This document shows, piece by piece, positions 20,696 to 60,115 of a stretch of 60,656 nt of DNA. The DNA is taken from positions 1 through 60,656 of the IMG/VR virus record IMGVR_UViG_3300049002_000003. The stretch is one strand, 5' to 3'. Under the pieces are notes generated by a model that worked only from the letters and a program-made list of their open reading frames with translations, ran no database searches and had not been told where the DNA came from. A program made the position numbers and the translations under genes. Each line of letters begins with the position of its first letter. Positions within the stretch are counted from its first letter, which is position 1. Origin of the DNA: a virus (lineage: Duplodnaviria > Caudoviricetes).

Positions 20696-21082
20696 CTAGC
20701 TCGGCGTTGGTGTCGGAGTCAGAGTTGCCTTTTGGATTGGAGGCAGCGGCCCATTCACTCCTGTGCAGCGGTTGTTGTATGCCTGCCTGTTCGCATTCAC
20801 GATCTTCAGCAGAATGGGGTTGGGCGATGGCGGCAACGGGATTGTCGCCAACGCCTCGAAGGAGCCGCAGTCCTTGTCGATGATTCTGTGGAGCCTAGTC
20901 GTCTCCTGCGACTGGTACAGCAGACCAATTCCGCCCACGAGTACGACGATGACTATCGTGGCTATGAACCACCATGTGCGACGCCGCAACCGCAGGTCCA
21001 CGCGCTCGCCTACCTCCACCAACTCATCGATCGAGTTACCGATTGGAGTCTTCCGGATTGGGCTCACCTTGATCTCCCCCAT
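20696..21082 (-). CDS. Membrane protein (one TM helix, Cys pair, Pro-rich tail)
   Basis: Hydrophobic 'WWFIATIVIVVLVGGIGLLY' segment. Start uncertain. Confidence 0.6.
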   Translation of the reverse strand: MGEIKVSPIRKTPIGNSIDELVEVGERVDLRLRRRTWWFIATIVIVVLVGGIGLLYQSQETTRLHRIIDKDCGSFEALATIPLPPSPNPILLKIVNANRQAYNNRCTGVNGPLPPIQKATLTPTPTPS

Positions 21083-26099: not shown

Positions 26100-26288
26100 C
26101 TGCATATCCGTACGAGAAGACCCTACGGGTCACGTCTGTTTGCCGCCCGTAATGCAATCCCAGTTCGTCCCTCGCGTACGCGCGCATCACGGGCGCGACC
26201 GGGCGACGCGCGCTGGCGTAGCGCGCGTGAGGCGCGCGTACAGCCGCGCGGGTCGCGTGAGGCGCGTACGTCGGCGCTGGGTGAGGAG

Positions 26289-32194: not shown

Positions 32195-32835
32195 GCCTCA
32201 AATCTGGTCTGAGCGAAGTTGGTCACGAGGAACCGGCCATACGTCGGCCGGAAGTCTGCGATGCCGACGACTCGGCCGCCGTTCTCCAGGACCTGCTGGA
32301 AGACGGTTGGGGAGACGTACTCCGGCAGGTTGATCATGAACTGGAAGGATGCGGTCCACCCCTCGTTGAAGGCTGGCCGCGAGCGCGTGACGCCGTTCCG
32401 CTGCACCATGACGCGCCGCTGGTCCATGAAGTCCCAGTCGGTCACGCCGCCGTTCAGCGGCGCCAGGTCGGTGAGCGGCACGATGGCTGCCTTCATGAGC
32501 TGAGCCATGGACGCTCGCGGCGAGCGCGGGTCGGGCCGGAACTTGGCCGAGTTGACCATGACCTGCCGGACGTACTCACCCGGCAAGCACAGCTGGTTAT
32601 TGCTGTTCCGCCAGACGTACGACTGGACGTCGTCAGTCTTCTTGGCGGCGCTGCCCTTCGCAGCAGCGGACTTCTCCGCCACCGACTCGACCGACCATCG
32701 GTGGAACAGCATCGGGCATACCCCGGTGAGGGTGAAGTCCACGATGACCGGCTCTGTCAGAGAGATGATGTCGTTGCCGTCGTCCGACGTCGGCTCCAGC
32801 ACGTCGGTCGCTTTGCCGTTCGCTTTCGCTGCCAC
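32191..32835 (-). CDS. Solo Cas7/RAMP-like RNA-binding protein (214 aa)
   Basis: GTG 32835 with a GAAGGAG RBS. RAMP-like layout: first strand 'FTLTGVCPMLFH', 'LCLPGEYVRQVM' (cf. IPGSSxKG of Csm3/Cas7 RAMPs), thumb-like 'DQRRVMVQRNGVTRSRPAF', C-terminal G-rich loop 'GGRVVGIADFRPTYGRF'. Confidence 0.7.
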   Translation of the reverse strand: MAAKANGKATDVLEPTSDDGNDIISLTEPVIVDFTLTGVCPMLFHRWSVESVAEKSAAAKGSAAKKTDDVQSYVWRNSNNQLCLPGEYVRQVMVNSAKFRPDPRSPRASMAQLMKAAIVPLTDLAPLNGGVTDWDFMDQRRVMVQRNGVTRSRPAFNEGWTASFQFMINLPEYVSPTVFQQVLENGGRVVGIADFRPTYGRFLVTNFAQTRFEA

Positions 32836-32850
32836 TGTGGCTCCTTCTGT

Positions 32851-33790: not shown

Positions 33791-36700
33791 CTACGTCGGG
33801 TCGATCACCCAGACGTCTTCCACATAGACCGATGCGCCGAAGCGCGTCGCATCGTACTTCCCGCGCACCAACAAGACATCGCGGTCCATGTTGAGATCCC
33901 ATAGCGCCTTCTCGAATGCAGGGAAGATGAAGCGGTTCCAACGGAGATAGATGATGGTGTCTGTCTCGTCTAGCGCGTGGATCACCATCCGCTTGACAAG
34001 GTCAGGCCGCTTCATGCGAGCGCGGATGACCTCATAGTCCTCACCGGTCTGGCCACGCTGGTCCTCAACCACGTCTCGCGAGTCGCGAAGCGTCGGAACG
34101 CAGGCGTACACCACTTTGGTGTCGCGTCCAAGAGCTTCGATCTGGGCCCCATTATGGGTCGGCTTAGGCAGCATTATGGCGCGCGAGTCGATGGCCTTCC
34201 GAACAGCCTGGAGCTTCCGGTCTACCGCATGGATGGAGAACGGGTCATCGGTACCGGCCTTCGCTAGAACAGCCGTCAGTTTAGCCGGCCCAATTCCCTT
34301 CACCCGCAGAAGGCTCGACCAGTCCTCGAATGGTCCATTCTCTGCCCGGTCGCGGACGATGTTCCCCGCATGCCAGAGCCCTAGTCCGGGCAGCTGGCTG
34401 AAGCCGGCGCCGATCCGGCCGTTCCGAATGCCCCAGGTCTCCTGTGAGCGCTTCAGGCTCGGCGCTGCTATCCGGACACCATGCTTGATAGCGTCGCGCA
34501 ACAGGAAATACTCATCGTCCGGGTACTTCAACAGGCAAGCGGTGAAGAACTCAATCGGGTGGTAGACCTTGAGCCACATCGTCCAGTACGCCAGCATAGC
34601 ATACGAGACGGAGTGTGCGACGTTGAAGGCATAGGTGCCGGCTGTCGCCATGCGGGCCCAGATCTCCTTGGCCTCCGCTTCCTTCATTCCATGCAAGCGC
34701 TTCGCACCTTCGAGGAACAGTCCTTGCCGCATGTTGAACGCCGCGTTGCCGTGCTTGAGCGAGATGATCTTGCGGATCTCTTGGGCGTGGGTCCAGTCGA
34801 AGCCGCCGATGAGCCGGACAATCGCAAGGATCTGCTCTTGGTAGATAATCTGGCCCTTGGTCCAGCCGATGATGTCCACCAGAGCGCGGTGGATCTTCTC
34901 CGGCTTGATCTTCCTGTGCTTGGTCCAGATGTACCGCTCGGTCGAGCCGGAGTGAAGCGGTCCAGGGCGGGACAGCGCATTGATGTCGGCTAGCTCCATA
35001 AATGTGTCCGGCTTCACACCACCACAGACGATCCGAGTTGCCCCACCGCCGAACTGGAAGATGCCCGTCAAGTCGCCATCTGCGAACGCTGCGATGATCT
35101 TCGGGTCATCCAGCGGGACGTCGTACATATCCTCAAGTGTCTTGCCGATCATCTTGAGGGCATGCTCTATCATGCCGAGGGTCGACAGCCCAAGGAAGTC
35201 GACCTTCATCAAGTTCAGGTACTCGGCGTCATACTTGTTGACGGACAGGACTTGTCGCTTGCGCTTCGCCTTGCCCGATCCGGTCTCGCGCTCATACGTC
35301 GCGCAGACGTCCGTCAGCGAACTGTCCGCGACGACTAGGCCGCAGGCATGGACCGACATGCCCTTGGTGTTGCCTTCGAGCCGGAGCGCCTTCCAGAGGA
35401 CTGGATAGGCATCCATGACCTCCTTGGCCTGCGGGAACATCGCAACCGTGTCTTCGAGCGTAGCTCCAGCCCGCGCGTCGCCAGAGCTACGCTCAATCAT
35501 CAGGTCCTTGATGACCTTGACGTGGTAGTCAGGCACTGCGTTGACGCGAGCTACGTCAACCAGAGAGTTCTTGCCCTTGTAGAGCGTGTACGTGCCGATA
35601 GCGCCGACCCGGTCGGCGCCATAGACTTGAATCGCATGCTGAGTTAGTTCGTCGCGCCGATGGTCAGCGAAGTCCAAGTCAACGTCGGGCACGTCCATGC
35701 GGTCGAGCGCGATGAACCGCTCGAAGTACATCATGGGGAATTGGAGCGGATCAACCTCAGTAATGCGAAGTAGGTAGCAGGTAAGAGATGCCGCTGCGGA
35801 GCCACGAGCCGGACCAACGGGGATGGGGTGTCCGTTGCCGTCATCCTTGGCCCAACGAACCAGTTCGGACAGCATCAAGAAGTAGTCTATGAAGCCCTTC
35901 TCGGAAATGATGGACATCTCGTAGCGGAGCCGCTCAAGATACTTCGCGCGCTGCTTCTTCAATCGGTTGTTGAAGCGCGCCCGGTAGTCCCAACCCTGCT
36001 TCAGCCAATCCCAGATCAACTTCTTGCTCGACGTGTACCCGTCTGGTAGCGGGAACCGGAGTCGCTCAGCCTTTGGCAACTTGACGTTACAGCGCGCAGC
36101 AATCTCTTGAGTTGAGTAGAGCGCTTGCTGCGCAGCCAGCTTGCTAAGACCTGTGCCCATAAGCCGTTGCATGACTAGCTTGTCTGACGTCGGGTGCGTC
36201 AGGCGAATGTCGTACTCCCAGCCTTCGGCCTGCTTCGAGACCGTGCCGGCGCCACGGCCGGCCGCGTGGAGAATCAGTTGCATCTCATTGTCGTCCGGGT
36301 GCGGGTAGTGCACGTCAGCTGTCGCTACTAGCGGTATGCCATAGCGCTGTCCCTCTTGCGCATACCACTGGTTGATAGCATGAGACCGTTTGAGCTCAGG
36401 AAACATCTGCGTCTCAAGGTAGAACCGGTCTCCAAGCAAGTCCTTGAACCGCTCGATAGTTCGGCGCGCTGCGCGCTCGCTTGGAGCGTCGTTCCCTTTG
36501 CCGCCGAGTAGGTCACACGCTAGCTTCGAGTCGGCGCAACCGGACAGCACTATGAGACCTTCGTTGTGCTCGGCCAGCATGTCGCCGGAGACAGTCGGCC
36601 AGCGGTAGAACCCTTCGGCCCAACTCCGCGTAACGATCTGCATCAAGTTGTGGTAGCCGGTCTGGTCGGCCGCCAACAGCGTCAGGTGCCACTTCCGGGT

Positions 36701-37331: not shown

Positions 37332-37732
37332 CGCCAAAGTACCTCTAGCTCAAGGCTAGCGAGGAACGATTGGCAATCAGCGCATGGCTCCTTCGAGACA
37401 TACAGCGTTGACTCTACGAAGACCTCACGCGGGTACCGGGTACCCAGCGCCATGGACACCGTGGCGACTTCGGCGTGCACGGCGACGCAGAATCCCTCTC
37501 CCGTGTATGGAGCGGTGCGCGGTAGCTCGGCGTGCGTCTTCCGGCCGCGCGGACAGATCAAGGCGCAGTGATCTGCCGGACCGCTGTTCCAGCCGGTCGC
37601 AATCGTCCGGCCGCGCCATACCAGAACTGCGCCGACACCACTCCTCTGGCAAAAGCTCCGCCCGGCTACGCGCGCAGCTGTCGCGAGGTAGCTGGCGTCA
37701 ACAGCATTCAGGACGCCATGTACTTGAGGCAT
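37328..37732 (-). CDS. dCMP deaminase
   Basis: 'VGAVLV...IATGWN', 'HAE' and 'EPCADC' zinc-deaminase motifs. Start approximate. Confidence 0.88.
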   Translation of the reverse strand: MPQVHGVLNAVDASYLATAARVAGRSFCQRSGVGAVLVWRGRTIATGWNSGPADHCALICPRGRKTHAELPRTAPYTGEGFCVAVHAEVATVSMALGTRYPREVFVESTLYVSKEPCADCQSFLASLELEVLWR

Positions 37733-45636: not shown

Positions 45637-45723
45637 TAGTGGCTCCCTCGACCGAGGAAGGACGACTTTACCGAGCTATTCAACTTGCAATTCCTCGCGC
45701 GTACGGGCGAAGCTCCCAAACTC

Positions 45724-45830
45724 TCGCGCGCTCCCGCGAATGAATTGATGTCTCCTACGCGCGTAGGAAGCCTGGGGGTCGCGCCCGTACACGAGACCAT
45801 GACGCGGCGCGGCGAGCGCGCCCGTACGCG
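45724..45830. repeat. Palindromic element copy 2 (related to 26289-26397)
   Basis: The same two boxes with identical 13-nt spacing, in the non-coding gap upstream of the primase genes. Confidence 0.8.
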
Positions 45831-45917
45831 AGAGCCTTGCAACATTCTCGCCTTCCGGTCGTCCGAGACCTAGCCGGTAGCAGTGTCGCTATGCGGCCTA
45901 GATTGGCCGTAGAGACA

Positions 45918-45962
45918 CTGCGGCGCCCGGATCGGTACGGATCGACCTTCCGGGCGCCGCAG
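45918..45962 (-). terminator. Stem-loop after the SSB-like gene
   Basis: CTGCGGCGCCCGGA / TCCGGGCGCCGCAG perfect 14-bp stem. Confidence 0.7.
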
Positions 45963-45986
45963 CGCTACAGGGACGCTCTCAGCGTG

Positions 45987-46913
45987 TCAGCGCCGAGCCG
46001 GCCGAGCCGCCTTCTTCGCAGGCGCCTTGCGAGCGCGCGTCGGGGGTGGCGTCGGCTCGTCTTCCTCGTCATCGTCGTCTTCGTCTTCGTCTTCGTCTTC
46101 GTCTTCGTCGTCCGGCTCCTCATCGTCCTCAGGCCGGTAGTAGGCATCGAGAGCGGCCACCAGGTCCGCCTTCTTCATGCCCTTCGCGTAGACGTCAACC
46201 TCAGGGTCCTTCGCCAGATCCCGGAGTTCCTTGACCTCCATCTCGTTGAGTTCTTCCAGGGACGGCGCACCTTCGTCGCCTTCGTCTTCGTCGTCCGACT
46301 CGTCATCGTCCTCATCGTCCGAGTCGTCTTCGTCGTCGGCCGCGAATGGGTCCTCAGGGTCTTCCACGGCGGCCGAGTCGTCTTCGTCTTCGTCATACTC
46401 CTCTTCGTCATCCGACAGCGTGGCCGGATCGATGCCGGGGAATGCCGGCGCGAAGTCGTCCGCGACCAGTTCCCACTCGCCGTCCGGATCATCGTTCTGC
46501 CGGCGCCGCTTGGCCATGATCGTCATGAGCGGCTCGTTGGCGATCTTGACGCCAGCGAGGGACACGACGTTGGTCGGCTTGTCGGTCGACTCGGTCACGG
46601 CGCCCATCTTGAGGAACTTCTCCCACGGGATGCCGAGACCCTTCTCCACGAAGTTGCGGACGAACCGCGCTCCGGCCTCCGTCAGGTTCCGGTTGAACCA
46701 GAAGGCGTATCCGTTGAACTTCTTCTTCGCGTTGCGCGTCTCGCGGATCTCCACGAGCGCATTCCACATGTCGTCGCCGGACTTGTTGACCTTCAGGCCC
46801 ATCCGCTTCAGGGCCACGACGTACATGCCCTTGGGCGGGCATGCACCATCATAGAAGGAGCCGCCTTCCAGTTCCTCCGTGTCACCGGAAAGTGCCCACT
46901 TCACTTTTGGCAT
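45987..46913 (-). CDS. ssDNA-binding protein (DUF669-like OB fold) with acidic linker and Rho-N/HeH-like module
   Basis: 'YDG..PPKG.Y.V...NKSGDDM' motif; directly follows the AAA ATPase; long D/E tracts. Confidence 0.65.
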   Translation of the reverse strand: MPKVKWALSGDTEELEGGSFYDGACPPKGMYVVALKRMGLKVNKSGDDMWNALVEIRETRNAKKKFNGYAFWFNRNLTEAGARFVRNFVEKGLGIPWEKFLKMGAVTESTDKPTNVVSLAGVKIANEPLMTIMAKRRRQNDDPDGEWELVADDFAPAFPGIDPATLSDDEEEYDEDEDDSAAVEDPEDPFAADDEDDSDDEDDDESDDEDEGDEGAPSLEELNEMEVKELRDLAKDPEVDVYAKGMKKADLVAALDAYYRPEDDEEPDDEDEDEDEDEDDDDEEDEPTPPPTRARKAPAKKAARPARR

Positions 46914-48326: not shown

Positions 48327-49337
48327 TCACTCCTCTGTGGATGGACGGTAGTTCGCGTGCGGGTCGACACGAATGAACTGTGCTTCACGGAACTCGCGCC
48401 ATTCGGCGCCTTGCTCATGCAACGTACACATGGTGTAGAACTCACAATCCCAGTAACAGTCCATGGTGTTGTTCTTGATAATCGGGAGGTTACCTGCGCG
48501 GAATTGCTCCATGATAATCATCTCATTAGCAATCCGACGCACCTGGTTCGCGCGCTCAGCGCGTGTCCGCTCCACGAAGTGTCGGGCGAACAGCGGTGCA
48601 GGCTGTTGCTTCGAGATGGAGCCATTCTTGTTGAGGTAGAGCCCTTCGGCGTTCCGCTCCCGGTCAGTGTCCGGCAACGCCTTCCGGAGGAAGTTGTACG
48701 TGATGCCGGCGATGCGTTCGCGCGGCCCAAGCACACCCTTGTCCTGAAGCACAGCAGTCGCGAACGCCCAGTATGCACCAGCCTGGTCATCATTGTTCAG
48801 GTGGTTGGTCCGGATCTGAGCCGCTGTCTTGTGCTCCATGAGCTTGATAAGGCCGTCAGACCGGTCTCGGTACACACCATCGAACGTTGAGGCGAACCGG
48901 CCGAGCGTGTCTCTGCGGGAGCGCGAGCGCGGGTCGGGAATCTCAATCTGGAACTGCTCTTCGGTATAGATGACGTCCCAGTTCCTGTCGCGCCCGTACT
49001 TCTCGCGGTACCCCGTCAACATGGCTTCGCCTAGCTCCAAAGCCGACGTCCACTTGGCCGCCATAAGCGAGTCGCCTTCGGCTTTGAGACGAATTGCCTG
49101 CGACAGCGAGTCGTCCGCGCAGTACTCGCGGAACTTGTCGATGAAGTCGCGTCGGCGCCGCTGCCCTGGCCCATACCGCCGAGCGAGCGCGATGTGAATC
49201 CCAATACCTAGCCAGAGCTTTAGGTCCATGTCGATTGGCTTGAGTCCGTCGACGTAGGCCCATTGCCAACGTTGCGGACAGCGCTTGAATGATCTGCGAC
49301 CCGTGGACGTCAGTAGAACTGTTGCATCCTCTGTCAT
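48327..49337 (-). CDS. Cas4/RecB-like PD-(D/E)xK exonuclease
   Basis: 'FKRCPQRW', 'GIGIH', 'FDGVY...LMEHKT', 'Q...Y' and C-terminal 'CYWDCEFYTMC'. Confidence 0.85.
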   Translation of the reverse strand: MTEDATVLLTSTGRRSFKRCPQRWQWAYVDGLKPIDMDLKLWLGIGIHIALARRYGPGQRRRRDFIDKFREYCADDSLSQAIRLKAEGDSLMAAKWTSALELGEAMLTGYREKYGRDRNWDVIYTEEQFQIEIPDPRSRSRRDTLGRFASTFDGVYRDRSDGLIKLMEHKTAAQIRTNHLNNDDQAGAYWAFATAVLQDKGVLGPRERIAGITYNFLRKALPDTDRERNAEGLYLNKNGSISKQQPAPLFARHFVERTRAERANQVRRIANEMIIMEQFRAGNLPIIKNNTMDCYWDCEFYTMCTLHEQGAEWREFREAQFIRVDPHANYRPSTEE

Positions 49338-49356
49338 GGCTCCCTCTCGGCGCTCT

Positions 49357-49455
49357 CGCTCAAAGGGCCAGACCTGTACCCACCGACGTGACGAAGGAAG
49401 GAGCCACCCAAACTTCGCGACTAGCAGCTGGTATACAGGTCTGGCCTTTTGAGCG
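49357..49455 (-). ncRNA. Long intergenic stem-loop (22-bp arms, 55-nt loop), candidate small RNA
   Basis: CGCTCAAAGGGCCAGACCTGTA / TACAGGTCTGGCCTTTTGAGCG (one mismatch). The loop carries the complement of a shared RBS motif. Confidence 0.45.
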
Positions 49456-49503
49456 GACGTGCGATCGTCTTCCCCCACCGACCGCACGCCCGCCGCTGTT
49501 GGG

Positions 49504-49896
49504 CTAGAAGGCCGCCTTGCCGCGCGTCGCCTTCGTGGCCGGTCGCGCCGCGCGCTTGGCCGGCGCCTTCGCCGGAGCCGGCTCGGCTTCGTCCGACTCG
49601 TCTTCGTCGTCCGCGTCGTCGGCTTCGGTCGCCTTGCTGGCCTTCGCCTTGCTGGCCTTGGTCGCCTTCGTCGCCTTGGCCTTCGTCGCCTTGGCCGGCG
49701 CCTTCTTCTCGGCGTTCGCGGCGATGCGCGCGGCGTTGGCCTCCTGGTTCATGTCGCTGGACTGGAAGTCGTGGTACCGCTGGACGGCGATCTGGAGGTG
49801 GTCGGCCGGGATCTCATACTCGTGCTCCTGCAGCAGCCACTCCGCGTACAACTCGTAGCGCGGGCTGGCCTCCAGAAGCGGCACTCGCTTGGGCAT
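49504..49896 (-). CDS. Small protein with Lys/Ala-rich histone-like tails
   Basis: AKAT and PAK repeats flanking an acidic patch; GAGGGAGAG RBS. Confidence 0.7.
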   Translation of the reverse strand: MPKRVPLLEASPRYELYAEWLLQEHEYEIPADHLQIAVQRYHDFQSSDMNQEANAARIAANAEKKAPAKATKAKATKATKASKAKASKATEADDADDEDESDEAEPAPAKAPAKRAARPATKATRGKAAF

Positions 49897-49946
49897 TTCT
49901 TTCTCTCCCTCTGTGTCAGTAGAGCGTCAGACCGCGACTCTACTGG

Positions 49947-50210
49947 CTAGCGCTCTATGGCGTCGGTTGCAGCCTCATCAGCAGCAGAGAGGAAGACGGA
50001 GCCGCCATGCGTCATGTCTGCTGTCGAGACATATGCGGGCGGGTTACCCCATTGGTCCCAGTCGGTGCGGCCGCTCGCGACACGCTGCGCCCAGTCCACA
50101 TCGGCCTGCTTGTCCTGTCGGCCGGCTCGATAGCCGATCCGGTAGCCGAGACTGAATCCGCCATACAGCAGCATAGCGACGATTGGCCAGACTACCGCCC
50201 AGATCCACAT
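49947..50210 (-). CDS. Membrane protein
   Basis: N-terminal TM helix followed by GYR repeats; AAGGAG RBS. Confidence 0.6.
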   Translation of the reverse strand: MWIWAVVWPIVAMLLYGGFSLGYRIGYRAGRQDKQADVDWAQRVASGRTDWDQWGNPPAYVSTADMTHGGSVFLSAADEAATDAIER

Positions 50211-50212
50211 AG

Positions 50213-52234
50213 CTACTCCTTGATAGTGACTCCCCAGGCCTTCCTGGCGTACGCGATACCGCGCCTGACGTCAAGTATCCGCTTTGCGTTGTAGTCCTTC
50301 TCTTCCACCATCTTCGCAATGCCCTCTTCGACCGTGTTGCGCGCCCGGACGTAGTACCACTTCACGTAGTGCTCGACGTTCGACGTTCGGTGGATACGCT
50401 TCTCGACCTGGTCTTGGTCGTCGGGAACGTACGTCTCATCCATCATGGCGCCGTAGTCGGCCGAGTCGAGCGTCAAGGACAGTCCGCCGGCATACGTGTT
50501 CAAGAGAAACACGCGCGGTCCACCAGGCTTCAAGAACCGAGCCGCGAACCTCGCTCGGTCCGTGTCGTCAACCGCACCAGTAATGACGAAGTGCGGGATC
50601 TTGGCGCGCTTCAATTGGGCGGAGTAGAAGTCGATGAACAGCGTGAACTGCGATGCGATGACGCATTTGGGGCCGGAGTCGTCTGCGTCGGATGAGATGC
50701 CCAGGCCGGGCAACCACTCGTCCATCAACCAATCGAGCTTCGCGCAGTCCTTGCCCGGCACGAAGCGGTCTTGCTTGTCGAACTTCATCTCACAGCCTGC
50801 GAACTCCTTGAGCCGAGTGATGACGGCAAGCGTGTTGTCTGCAGTCAGACGTCGGCCGCTGATATCCGCGACAGCTTGCGACTCCATTTCGTCATACTGC
50901 TTCCGCTGGCGCGGCCCAAGGTCTACCCACTTCTCATAGTAGGCAATAGGCGGTGGAGCCCAAGCCGGGTTGAGGCTGCGTAGCTCGCCGGACGTCCTGC
51001 GGATACAGATGCGGCTCAACTCGCGGTCTAGCTCGGCCATCATCTCCGGCCGGACCTGGTCTAGGTACTCCACACCGCTCTGCGTGTAGCGGTTCGGCTT
51101 CGAGGCGAGGTAGCGCTGCTGCCAAGTCCACGCCGACGTGTAGACCTTCGGCCGCAGCCAGGCGAGAATGGGGAACAGATTGCGCGGCCGGCCCTTCATA
51201 GGCGTACCGGTGAGAGCGATCCGCATGCCGTCGCCGTTGTCGAGCGGCTTGGTATTGAGGGTCTGGAAGCCGAGCCCCACCATGCTCGCCTTCCGCTTCT
51301 TGGAGTTGACTAGGTAGCGCTGGACCTCATCGCCAATTATGAAGTCCCATTCGGTCGTATGGAGTAGCGGGTACGCATGATCAAGCAGCAACTTGTGCGT
51401 CCGCTTGTCCGGGCATGCTTGCGCCGAGACCATCGTCTCGTGAATGCCGCGCGGCTGACCGTTCTCGGCTACTCCTCGGCACTTCCAAGTCCGAGTCGTC
51501 TGTAGCATTTCCGGGTTGACCAAAAGGAAGTCGAATGCGTTCTTGCTGTCGGCTGACTCTGCTACGAACTCCTCAATAGCCGCTACACGGTCGGCATTGC
51601 CGGCCTCGACTATGGCTCGGCCGCGCGAACCAGCCGACTCACGAACTGTCGCCAACATGACGGAGACGTCTAGCTCTGGAAGCCATTTCTCAATCTCAGG
51701 GATCCAAGTCGCCGTCAGCGCGGTTCGCGGCGCGATGATTAGGCCGCGCCCGAAGCAACCGGCCTCTACTAGCGCGCCGAACGACTCAATGCATTTACCG
51801 AGCCCTTGCTCATCGAAGTTGCCGTGCGGGCCGCAGTCGGCGCCGAACCGAGCCGCCACGGTCTGATAGCCGCGCCGTAGCATGGCCGCGTACAGAGTTG
51901 GCGCAACCTGTCGGACGTTCGGTAGGTCCACGGGAGTACGGCCGTCTACCGCCAACGTAGCCCGCAAGGAGCGCTCCCTAGCGAGCTCAGCGCGACCCCA
52001 AGCCGTCAACTCCGGCCCGATGTCGAGCCGATCCGCGAACACGCCTCGCATGCGTCGACAGACGCCAAGGTCCAGAGGGAACGTCCAGACCTTGGCGTCT
52101 GTGAAGCTGGCGCCTGGTATTGACTTGATGTTCGCGAGGTTCTCAGCGAATAGATCAGAGTTGGACGTGTAGTCGGTCCGCAGGTGAATCCGGTTGCGGT
52201 ACTTCTCGATGCGGACCCTGTCTCCCATGTCCAA
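50213..52234 (-). CDS. SNF2-family DNA helicase
   Basis: 'DEQGLGKC', 'IIGDEVQ', 'LTGTP', 'GLSLTL' and 'QVEKRIHR' motifs. Confidence 0.9.
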   Translation of the reverse strand: MDMGDRVRIEKYRNRIHLRTDYTSNSDLFAENLANIKSIPGASFTDAKVWTFPLDLGVCRRMRGVFADRLDIGPELTAWGRAELARERSLRATLAVDGRTPVDLPNVRQVAPTLYAAMLRRGYQTVAARFGADCGPHGNFDEQGLGKCIESFGALVEAGCFGRGLIIAPRTALTATWIPEIEKWLPELDVSVMLATVRESAGSRGRAIVEAGNADRVAAIEEFVAESADSKNAFDFLLVNPEMLQTTRTWKCRGVAENGQPRGIHETMVSAQACPDKRTHKLLLDHAYPLLHTTEWDFIIGDEVQRYLVNSKKRKASMVGLGFQTLNTKPLDNGDGMRIALTGTPMKGRPRNLFPILAWLRPKVYTSAWTWQQRYLASKPNRYTQSGVEYLDQVRPEMMAELDRELSRICIRRTSGELRSLNPAWAPPPIAYYEKWVDLGPRQRKQYDEMESQAVADISGRRLTADNTLAVITRLKEFAGCEMKFDKQDRFVPGKDCAKLDWLMDEWLPGLGISSDADDSGPKCVIASQFTLFIDFYSAQLKRAKIPHFVITGAVDDTDRARFAARFLKPGGPRVFLLNTYAGGLSLTLDSADYGAMMDETYVPDDQDQVEKRIHRTSNVEHYVKWYYVRARNTVEEGIAKMVEEKDYNAKRILDVRRGIAYARKAWGVTIKE

Positions 52235-52702: not shown

Positions 52703-52723
52703 GACGTGGCTCCTTCGGTTAGT

Positions 52724-55408: not shown

Positions 55409-55438
55409 CTTCGTGGCTCCTTCGGTTCCGCTGTTCGA

Positions 55439-55726: not shown

Positions 55727-55742
55727 CTCGCGGCTCCTTCGG

Positions 55743-55805
55743 TCGGGCGGTACCGCCTGAGCGTATCGCCAGATCGGCAACTTGCATACCGCCGAACGGC
55801 CTAAC
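55743..55805 (-). promoter_or_regulatory. Bipartite early promoter repeat, copy 3
   Basis: TTAGGCCGTTCGGCGG-N23-TACGCTCAGGCGGTACCGCCCGA on the minus strand. Confidence 0.75.
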
Positions 55806-56391
55806 GTTGCAGATCGAGGAAGATCGTCCGGTACGTGCAGAGGAAGTCCTCTAGGTCATCCGCTCGCATGCCGCGAAGCTCAGCCGGCCAGTCTGTACGC
55901 GGTATGCGCCCGACGTGGCGCTGTGTCCAACTCGGGACCAGCGCGAGCCAACCCGCGCGGACGCCAGCATGGAGGTACAGGGACTGCGGCTCAAGCCTGA
56001 GGTACGCGCCGCATCGCACGGCTACGTCATACGTCGTCACCGGGCCGATGCCCTTCGGCCGGATGCGCTCGAATTCGTCATACAGTGCGTCGAACGTCTT
56101 CGCCAGGTTACTTGACCCCCGCAGAATCTGTCGGCCGAATTCGATCCGCGCATTCAAGTCGACTTTGGACTGATGATTGTGGTGCTTACCATTTGCGTCC
56201 CGCGACAGTACTGCGCGCTCTACCGCAATCCACCAAACTGCGGCTTCGGCGCAGTAGGCGACGACAGCATCTCTGCGGGTGTCGAGTCCACCGCCGGGGG
56301 CAGTCCGTCGCTCCCAATCCCGCAGAATAGCGCCGAGCGAGGTAAGCGGCTCTGCCGGAGGCGACGTGTCGAACAGCTTCGCGATATCCAT
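55801..56391 (-). CDS. Helix-hairpin-helix protein, distantly DNA-glycosylase/base-modification-like
   Basis: 'KGIGPVTTYDVA' HhH-like motif, 'YLHAGVRAG' and C-terminal 'LEDFLCTY'. Confidence 0.5.
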   Translation of the reverse strand: MDIAKLFDTSPPAEPLTSLGAILRDWERRTAPGGGLDTRRDAVVAYCAEAAVWWIAVERAVLSRDANGKHHNHQSKVDLNARIEFGRQILRGSSNLAKTFDALYDEFERIRPKGIGPVTTYDVAVRCGAYLRLEPQSLYLHAGVRAGWLALVPSWTQRHVGRIPRTDWPAELRGMRADDLEDFLCTYRTIFLDLQR

Positions 56392-58065: not shown

Positions 58066-58090
58066 CGGTGGCTCCTTCGGGTCGGGCGGC

Positions 58091-58155
58091 TCGGGCGGTA
58101 CGCCCTGAGCCTAGTTGCGGTTCGGCACTTGCAACTCCGCCGAACGGCCTAACTT
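58091..58155 (-). promoter_or_regulatory. Bipartite early promoter repeat, copy 2
   Basis: TTAGGCCGTTCGGCGG-N23-TAGGCTCAGGGCGTACCGCCCGA on the minus strand. Confidence 0.75.
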
Positions 58156-59701: not shown

Positions 59702-59717
59702 CTGTGGCTCCTTCGGG

Positions 59718-60026: not shown

Positions 60027-60050
60027 CGTGGCTCCTTCGGCGGCAGTTCG

Positions 60051-60115
60051 TCGGGCGGTACGCCCTGAGCGTAGGGCTGTATTTGCAGTTGAAGTACCGC
60101 CGAACGGCCTAACTT
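60051..60115 (-). promoter_or_regulatory. Bipartite early promoter repeat, copy 1
   Basis: TTAGGCCGTTCGGCGG-N23-TACGCTCAGGGCGTACCGCCCGA on the minus strand. Confidence 0.75.

Follow-up and report, generated by a model that had tools for sequence, protein, structure and literature searches.

A hairpin in the replication module of a phage genome with an apical motif complementary to a recurring ribosome-site cassette: a candidate anti-ribosome-site RNA

Temporal control in phages is usually exerted by promoters, by sigma and anti-sigma factors, and by a few protein translational repressors or nucleases such as RegA and RegB of T4. Among RNA regulators, 6C/B11 of the Actinomycetota and RsaE/RoxS of the Firmicutes are sRNAs with pyrimidine-rich loops that bind the Shine-Dalgarno regions of many mRNAs. 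Hairpins of another kind lie between the cistrons of the T7 early mRNA, where they are processed by RNase III, an enzyme that acts on dsRNA of roughly two helical turns (at least 20 bp); we know of none of these T7 sites with a loop complementary to the phage's own ribosome sites. In P1 and P7, the c4 RNA is processed by RNase P, and the original work on this antisense RNA is said to be that of Citron & Schuster in 1990. A report on P1 (PMC8198154) has C4 RNA as needed for the full repression of ant in the c4-icd-ant operon, and it names a C4-antisense-RNA binding site. A search of the literature on phage anti-Shine-Dalgarno sRNAs showed, as far as titles and abstract openings go, nothing of the kind that we describe below.

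The DNA analysed here, called the window throughout, is a complete IMG/VR virus record of 60,656 bp with direct terminal repeats and a G+C content of 62%, with its long ORFs almost all on the minus strand. Judged by the Cas4-family exonuclease, its closest isolated relatives are Streptomyces phages (Yara, Gibson, Rooney and others, 47-50% aa identity); since these infect Streptomyces, the host phylum is taken to be Actinomycetota and the host is probably an actinobacterium. The element belongs to the replication/recombination module, where it occupies part of the 166 non-coding nucleotides that separate two genes of the same strand. Downstream of the gap the Cas4 gene is followed on its 3' side by two small ORFs and a Sak4-like AAA_24 protein, and further on by a primase-helicase and a Pol III alpha-type polymerase. 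We placed the Cas4 start at the ATG at 49337 because residues R14, R19, C20 and W26 are invariant among the homologs; the database gene call for this protein (P0003) has only 300 aa, at 89% coverage. The features of the locus are as follows.

52228-50213, minus strand: SNF2-type helicase, followed in the module by an 87-aa ORF and then by gene A
49504..49896, minus strand: gene A, the upstream neighbour, 130 aa with a Lys/Ala-rich tail, no Pfam family, with a homolog in the relative G001
49453..49493, minus strand: first hairpin after the gene A stop codon, abutting the long hairpin, 15-bp stem, -29.2 kcal/mol, z = -6.65
49357..49455, minus strand: long irregular hairpin, 22-bp outer stem and folded interior, z = -8.2
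49395..49413, minus strand: block kept with G001, on the gene strand GTTTGGGTGGCTCCTTCCT, at the hairpin apex
49397..49407, minus strand: anti-ribosome-site 11-mer GUGGCUCCUUC, the exact complement of GAAGGAGCCAC
49335..49348, minus strand: Cas4 ribosome site and start codon GAGAGGGAGCCAUG, possible cis partner of the loop, -21.1 kcal/mol
48327..49337, minus strand: Cas4-family PD-(D/E)XK exonuclease gene, the downstream neighbour

The long hairpin is the top-ranked inverted repeat of the whole window among those with arms no more than 120 nt apart. Its arms, 49357-49378 and 49434-49455, are 22 nt each, 95% complementary and 55 nt apart. A reading made from the letters before this analysis, the sequence-only reading, had seen these arms around a 55-nt loop; the arms are real, while the loop is itself folded, so that the element is better described as one irregular 99-nt hairpin. 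On the gene strand this 99-nt RNA folds at -56.6 kcal/mol, and none of 200 shuffles folds as well. The second best inverted repeat of the genome, at 26176-26241, has 24-nt arms that are 88% complementary around an 18-nt spacer.

At its apex the hairpin mirrors a sequence that recurs in front of genes. Exact copies of GAAGGAGCCAC number seven, six on the minus strand (32837, 52706, 55413, 58068, 59704 and 60028) and one on the plus strand, which is the apex itself (49397-49407). When one mismatch is allowed, the window holds 14 matches against 1.47 expected, a number that 0 of 100 shuffles reach. As the sequence-only reading had it, all six exact minus-strand copies, and likewise the one-mismatch copy at 55730, stand directly before a start codon, 1-4 nt from an ATG or GTG; a further one-mismatch site, GAGGGAGCCAC at 45639, precedes a 93-aa ORF. 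The same reading saw in the apex the only copy in the opposite orientation, which is right at the exact level but does not extend to one-mismatch copies, found on the plus strand also at 20858 and 46854, nor to the 8-mer GGAGCCAC, which has a second opposite-strand copy at 35798. GGAG lies within 20 nt of the start in 52 of the 74 crudely called genes of the window. After this GGAG, CCAC forms the spacer in 6 of the 52 start regions, and no other 4-mer is found there more than twice. The unit that recurs is about 13 nt long, CCGAAGGAGCCAC, and was seen five to six times.

The element thus described shares several properties with the systems mentioned above and departs from each of them. With P1/P7 c4 (immI operon) it has in common a phage stem-loop, located on the same strand as its targets, which here are predicted ones, and an exposed anti-ribosome-site sequence. 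But it has no Rfam C4 match, it has many predicted targets that lie mostly upstream instead of one downstream, and it is not found in an immunity or antirepressor context. With 6C/B11 and RsaE/RoxS it shares a C/U-rich hairpin loop as a candidate seed against the G-rich ribosome sites of several messages. Here too there is no Rfam match; moreover, 6C consists of two hairpins with C-rich loops, whereas our element has a CU-rich apex of different sequence and a different architecture. Unlike 6C and RsaE, the element is phage-encoded, no independent transcription unit was found for it, and its loop reads past the Shine-Dalgarno sequence into the private CCAC spacer, so that one class of phage genes would be singled out. 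Finally, like the T7 RNase III sites, it is a long imperfect dsRNA hairpin in an intercistronic gap of a phage operon read from one strand.

Across the viral, metagenome and genome collections that were searched, one genome, G001, has the same layout, and the conservation described here rests on this one comparator. G001 is a complete 61.5-kb record with a Cas4 protein 53% identical to that of the window, a gene A homolog and a conserved upstream gene order. Its gap between gene A and Cas4 is about 200 nt long and contains three to four tandem hairpins with stems of 14-17 bp, and blastn detects no similarity between the two gaps. Their longest common substring is an exact 11-mer, GGGTGGCTCCT; a common substring of at least 11 nt has a probability of 0.0135 (2000 dinucleotide shuffles). 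The word that was kept is specifically complementary to the ribosome-site cassette. This 11-mer is the centre of a 19-nt block, GTT[T/G]GGGTGGCTCCT[T/C][C/T]CT, which has the same orientation in both gaps and starts 62 nt before Cas4 in G001 and 70 nt before it in the window. The loop motif is therefore the only block kept between two otherwise diverged gaps, and this supports the view that it is under selection. The block forms the tip of a local hairpin in the window and in G001 alike; the stems of this hairpin, in our reading, differ and yet pair (GUCGCGAAG/CUUCGUCAC in the window, GAUCGGCCGAG/CUCGGCCGGUC in G001), which with two sequences is suggestive. MAFFT, when applied to the apical hairpins, placed a 3-nt indel so that the columns of paired bases fell out of register. 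Of the long hairpin, G001 keeps only the apical part with the motif and not the 22-bp outer stem.

Two points count against this picture. In the G001 fold the motif lies largely inside a stem, and opening it costs 8.65 kcal/mol as against 4.85 kcal/mol in the window; furthermore, when the two phages are compared, the flanks of the loop show no clean covariation with those of the targets. A motif that was buried or not conserved had been named beforehand as what would speak against a regulatory loop. What we find is a motif partly exposed at the apex and conserved in G001, where it is nonetheless largely in a stem.

The distribution of the ribosome-site class follows that of its mirror motif. 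GGAGCCAC occurs 8 times on the gene strand versus 2 times on the other strand in the window, and 7 versus 3 times in G001. In five more distant relatives (Rooney and four IMG/VR genomes) it occurs 0-3 times per strand, no more than the reversed-pattern controls. Of the seven genomes compared, the two with the mirror motif are the only ones enriched for the class. The window and G001 are sisters, so that this co-occurrence of motif and cassette counts as a single evolutionary event.

Further relatives were sought in several ways. Searches of the viral contigs with the Cas4 protein, a Cas4 alignment, the 62% homolog P0004 and a gene A alignment gave no layout match beyond G001; the metagenome contigs searched contained no second genome with the layout of the window, the genome contigs gave 2 distant matches, and gene A found no homolog among isolated phages. 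A 15-mer of the stem had 20 chance matches in the viral contigs, none with further similarity, and the degenerate conserved block retrieved G001 only. Cas4 homologs at 57-62% identity do exist. From 160 Cas4 loci (L025-L184) we obtained 118 distinct upstream regions, after dropping those with an identical last 200 nt or with no locatable start. Exact GTGGCTCC is present within 400 nt upstream of Cas4 in three of them, L025, L085 and L142. The L085 copy was set aside as lying inside an overlapping upstream ORF, and the L142 copy, in a 74-nt gap, was judged unconvincing.

Several observations bear on whether the element acts as RNA. The whole gap folds at -90.5 kcal/mol on the gene strand versus -76.7 kcal/mol on the antisense strand in the window, and at -111.4 versus -103.1 kcal/mol in G001, where the apical hairpin considered by itself gives -28.9 versus -20.9 kcal/mol. 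The advantage of the gene strand comes from G·U pairs, and its presence in both gaps points to an RNA-level element. Against this counts the sole mismatch of the 22-bp stem, a G·U pair if the antisense strand is folded and A·C if the gene strand is. The predicted exposure of the motif is partial: along GUGGCUCCUUC the unpaired probabilities are 0.25, 1.0, 1.0, 1.0, 0.98, 0.70, 0.01, 0.01, 0.59, 1.0 and 1.0, which means that UGGC is unpaired at 0.98-1.0 and the next U at 0.70, that CC is paired and that the terminal UC is open. Opening the 11-mer costs 4.85 kcal/mol, as compared with -20.1 kcal/mol for the duplex. The loop may also resemble the 3' end of 16S rRNA.

The first hairpin of the gap (49453-49493) may be an internal partner or a competitor of the anti-ribosome-site loop. 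Its own loop is purine-rich and Shine-Dalgarno-like (GUGGGGGAAGA), and within it GGGGGAAG could base-pair, at -11.8 kcal/mol, with the CU-rich apex of the long hairpin. It aligns with the Shine-Dalgarno-like arm GGGGGAGCCGCAC of the first hairpin of G001 (L025 2277-2327), and in G001 a predicted internal partner of the motif is the 3' arm of that first hairpin (-27.0 kcal/mol).

The sequence-only reading had proposed a trans-acting anti-Shine-Dalgarno sRNA of about 100 nt that shuts off early genes, a proposal that is only partly supported. Its motif is conserved and partly exposed, and it has discrete predicted targets; a separate gene for such an sRNA is the part that found no support, neither promoter nor terminator having been detected. 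Indeed, no sigma-70-type promoter flanks the element, a scan that phage-specific promoters would escape, and a consensus scan for intrinsic terminators on the gene strand of 48900-50300 gave none; the hairpin is followed by AGAGCGCC, with no U tract. Comparison of 48800-50200 with Rfam 15 at E <= 1 returned only a chance match to a miRNA precursor, the whole window had 0 matches at the gathering thresholds, and the G001 gap matched neither C4 nor 6C. On its antisense strand (L025 2292-2371) the G001 gap has an Rfam match to the tymovirus tRNA-like element, with 29.6 bits against a gathering threshold of 40 (E = 2e-4); this is probably an artefact of a G+C-rich hairpin, and ARAGORN finds no tRNA. 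At the element of the window no tRNA or tmRNA was found either, and a replication origin was set aside, the site having no GC-skew turn, no AT-rich stretch and no iterons. The same was done with a small ORF or an N-terminal extension of Cas4 running through the hairpin: by our reading the frames of the two phages share only GWLL, and in G001 the frame is not that of Cas4.

For the prediction of targets, an unrestricted duplexfold of the whole loop does not discriminate: 70 of the 74 start regions reach -17 kcal/mol or lower, and shuffled loops average 66. Contiguous pairs and opening energies were therefore used instead, in a rough model that adds the opening energies of both partners to the best contiguous duplex and takes gene starts from a crude caller. 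In the whole gene-strand sequence, 9 sites could form an unbroken run of 9 or more Watson-Crick pairs with the 20-nt apex. Seven of these are directly before gene starts and one is just inside a coding region; the ninth, at 37394, precedes an ATG with a stop two codons on. The rough model separates 8-9 of 75 start regions of the window, at -7.9 to -14.1 kcal/mol net, from the next best, that of Cas4, at -4.7. In the 19.5 kb of G001 that were examined it likewise separates 5 of 23 start regions (-6.7 to -18.2 kcal/mol net) from the next at -2.2. The start region of gene A is absent from the 20 best predicted partners, all of which have a net value of -1.9 kcal/mol or lower. The predicted target sites in the window are the following.

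60028..60038, minus strand: predicted target ribosome site of an HNH-like 102-aa gene, net -10.7 kcal/mol
59704..59714, minus strand: predicted target ribosome site of a 274-aa protein, net -12.3 kcal/mol
58068..58078, minus strand: predicted target ribosome site of a 140-aa gene, net -14.1 kcal/mol with 12 contiguous pairs
55730..55740, minus strand: predicted target ribosome site with one mismatch, GAAGGAGCCGC, of a 95-aa gene, net -7.9 kcal/mol
55413..55423, minus strand: predicted target ribosome site of a DUF2786 protein of 332 aa, net -11.7 kcal/mol
52706..52716, minus strand: predicted target ribosome site of a 139-aa gene, net -9.9 kcal/mol
45639..45649, minus strand: predicted target ribosome site GAGGGAGCCAC of a 93-aa ORF before the primase-helicase gene, net -11.0 kcal/mol
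32837..32847, minus strand: predicted target ribosome site of a 214-aa gene, phrog_4652, net -10.6 kcal/mol

Most of the best predicted targets, six of nine, are located upstream of the element, and the downstream candidates are Cas4, 45636 and 32835. The idea that early genes alone are targeted is not borne out, since the predicted set includes 45636, 32835 and, in G001, the helicase; nor could the gene at 32835 be called RAMP-like, as it belongs to no Pfam family and its phrog_4652 is without known function. Two ortholog pairs are among the top targets in both phages (59701/50774 and 55408/54028, window/G001). One is the 274-aa protein of the 59704 site, with a sub-threshold match to DUF6011 (24.7 bits against a cutoff of 26.6), and the other is the DUF2786 protein; their G001 orthologs carry the motif and reach -15.6 and -18.2 kcal/mol, respectively. 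In the examined stretch of G001 the cassette heads five genes, the helicase included, and orthologs do not always share it.

Our preferred reading, to which we give a probability of about 45%, is that of an operon-embedded anti-ribosome-site RNA which would pair with the GGAGCCAC class and would resemble P1 c4 in its logic, not in its family. The gene-strand transcript of the replication/recombination module would contain, between the gene A and Cas4 reading frames, a structured RNA that presents the conserved apical motif 5'-GGGUGGCUCCU-3', and this motif would base-pair with the phage-private cassette (CC)GAAGGAGCCAC. The cassette, a Shine-Dalgarno sequence followed by the fixed CCAC spacer, heads about eight genes, mostly at the promoter-proximal and presumably early end of the genome, and the pairing would occlude ribosome binding. 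The RNA may act within the long transcript, or else after excision, for which the 22-bp stem would be the RNase III substrate. The stem has indeed the length that RNase III takes (at least 20 bp of mostly uninterrupted dsRNA), with one mismatch. What the analysis shows is the structure and its preference for one strand, the exact complementarity, the motif kept in G001, its co-occurrence with the enriched ribosome-site class and the predicted pairing energies; the accumulation of the RNA, its pairing in vivo, its repressive effect, its processing and its timing are inferred.

Such a hairpin could also be purely structural, an intercistronic element for processing, stability or termination, whose match to ribosome sites would have no regulatory role. 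It might then be an RNase III site at which the message of the recombination genes is cut from the one upstream, or a terminator of actinobacterial type that lacks a U tract. Two abutting and very stable hairpins that begin 10 nt past the stop codon of gene A are what one might see in that case, as are the three to four hairpins that G001 has in a row there, a 22-bp stem close to the RNase III length known from T7 early mRNA and the failure to find a promoter proper to the element. However, the stems have diverged between the two phages and the apical motif has remained identical, which is the opposite of what a purely structural role predicts. Moreover, no U-tract terminator was detected, and processing and antisense action are not mutually exclusive. 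We therefore regard a structural role by itself as unlikely, although it deserves serious consideration; if the element were a processing hairpin only, the finding would be an ordinary one. The position of the element, immediately upstream of the Cas4 gene, raises instead the case of a control in cis only, in which the loop would form a pseudoknot with the Cas4 ribosome site GAGGGAGCCAUG, 50 nt downstream, and throttle the synthesis of the nuclease. Indeed, 10-11 contiguous pairs, one of them G·U, can be drawn between the loop and the Cas4 Shine-Dalgarno sequence together with the A of its AUG. But the net value of the window Cas4 site after opening costs is only -4.7 kcal/mol, as against -8 to -14 kcal/mol for the other targets, and in G001, where Cas4 starts at a GTG behind the purine tract ACAGAGAGACAGAGAUACA and has no GGAGCC, the net pairing is +3.9 kcal/mol. 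As the G001 Cas4 lacks a complementary ribosome site, a device for Cas4 alone is not conserved; in addition, of seven Cas4 homolog loci that were studied closely, five lack any gap upstream of Cas4. This makes the cis reading improbable in our eyes.

An explanation at the level of DNA would treat GAAGGAGCCAC as an asymmetric site for a phage regulator, on the analogy of the stoperators of cluster-A mycobacteriophages, or the inverted repeat as an origin or cruciform. A dsDNA site can be read in either orientation, the 13-nt CCGAAGGAGCCAC exceeds the length that a Shine-Dalgarno sequence requires, and the element is inside the replication module. Nevertheless, the motif always keeps the spacing of a ribosome site to the start codon, the structure of the gap is stronger on the gene-strand RNA, and the marks of an origin (AT-rich stretch, iterons, GC-skew turn) are missing from the site, so that we give little credit to this explanation. 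There is least to be said for chance or a relic, such as the remnant of an inverted gene start or of a small ORF, without function. By our estimate from 4^11, an extra copy of the 11-mer in 2 x 60.6 kb has a chance of about 0.03, and a reading frame does run through the hairpin into Cas4. Yet the motif is at the same position in G001, where the rest of the gap has diverged, and in neither genome is the ribosome-site-like copy of the plus strand followed by a start codon; an accident of this kind is very hard to credit.

If the preferred reading of an operon-embedded anti-ribosome-site RNA is true, it would amount to a compact and sequence-programmable shutdown of a gene class and account for the conservation, in some of the ribosome sites, of bases outside the Shine-Dalgarno core; it would also offer a testable and portable regulator-target pair for the engineering of actinobacterial phages. 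A broader proposition, which we put forward as tentative, is that this phage lineage marks a class of genes with a private cassette and that a single hairpin in the replication operon reads exactly that cassette, loop and cassette co-evolving in an RNA-only switch. Were this so, the switch would be self-contained and would turn a whole gene class down as transcription proceeds.

Other features of the window are of interest for its regulation. A 65-nt repeat is present three times (55743-55807, 58091-58155 and 60051-60115, minus strand), each time just upstream of genes led by GAAGGAGCC[A/G]C. Read on the gene strand, the copies terminate in TA(G/C)GCTCAGG, after which comes a small hairpin that is GGGCGTACCGCCC in two of them and GGCGGTACCGCC in the third. 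These repeats look like putative early promoters with a 5' stabilising hairpin, and the repeat of these three upstream genes is not present at the hairpin element. The 308-aa protein encoded at 45987-46913 contains long runs of Asp and Glu and, at E = 1.2e-4, which does not pass the Pfam cutoff, a stretch weakly resembling Rho_N. Next to it, a 350-nt gap with nested inverted repeats (45637-45986) lies upstream of the 93-aa ORF 45636-45355 with its motif-type ribosome site, and this gap may be another regulatory region.
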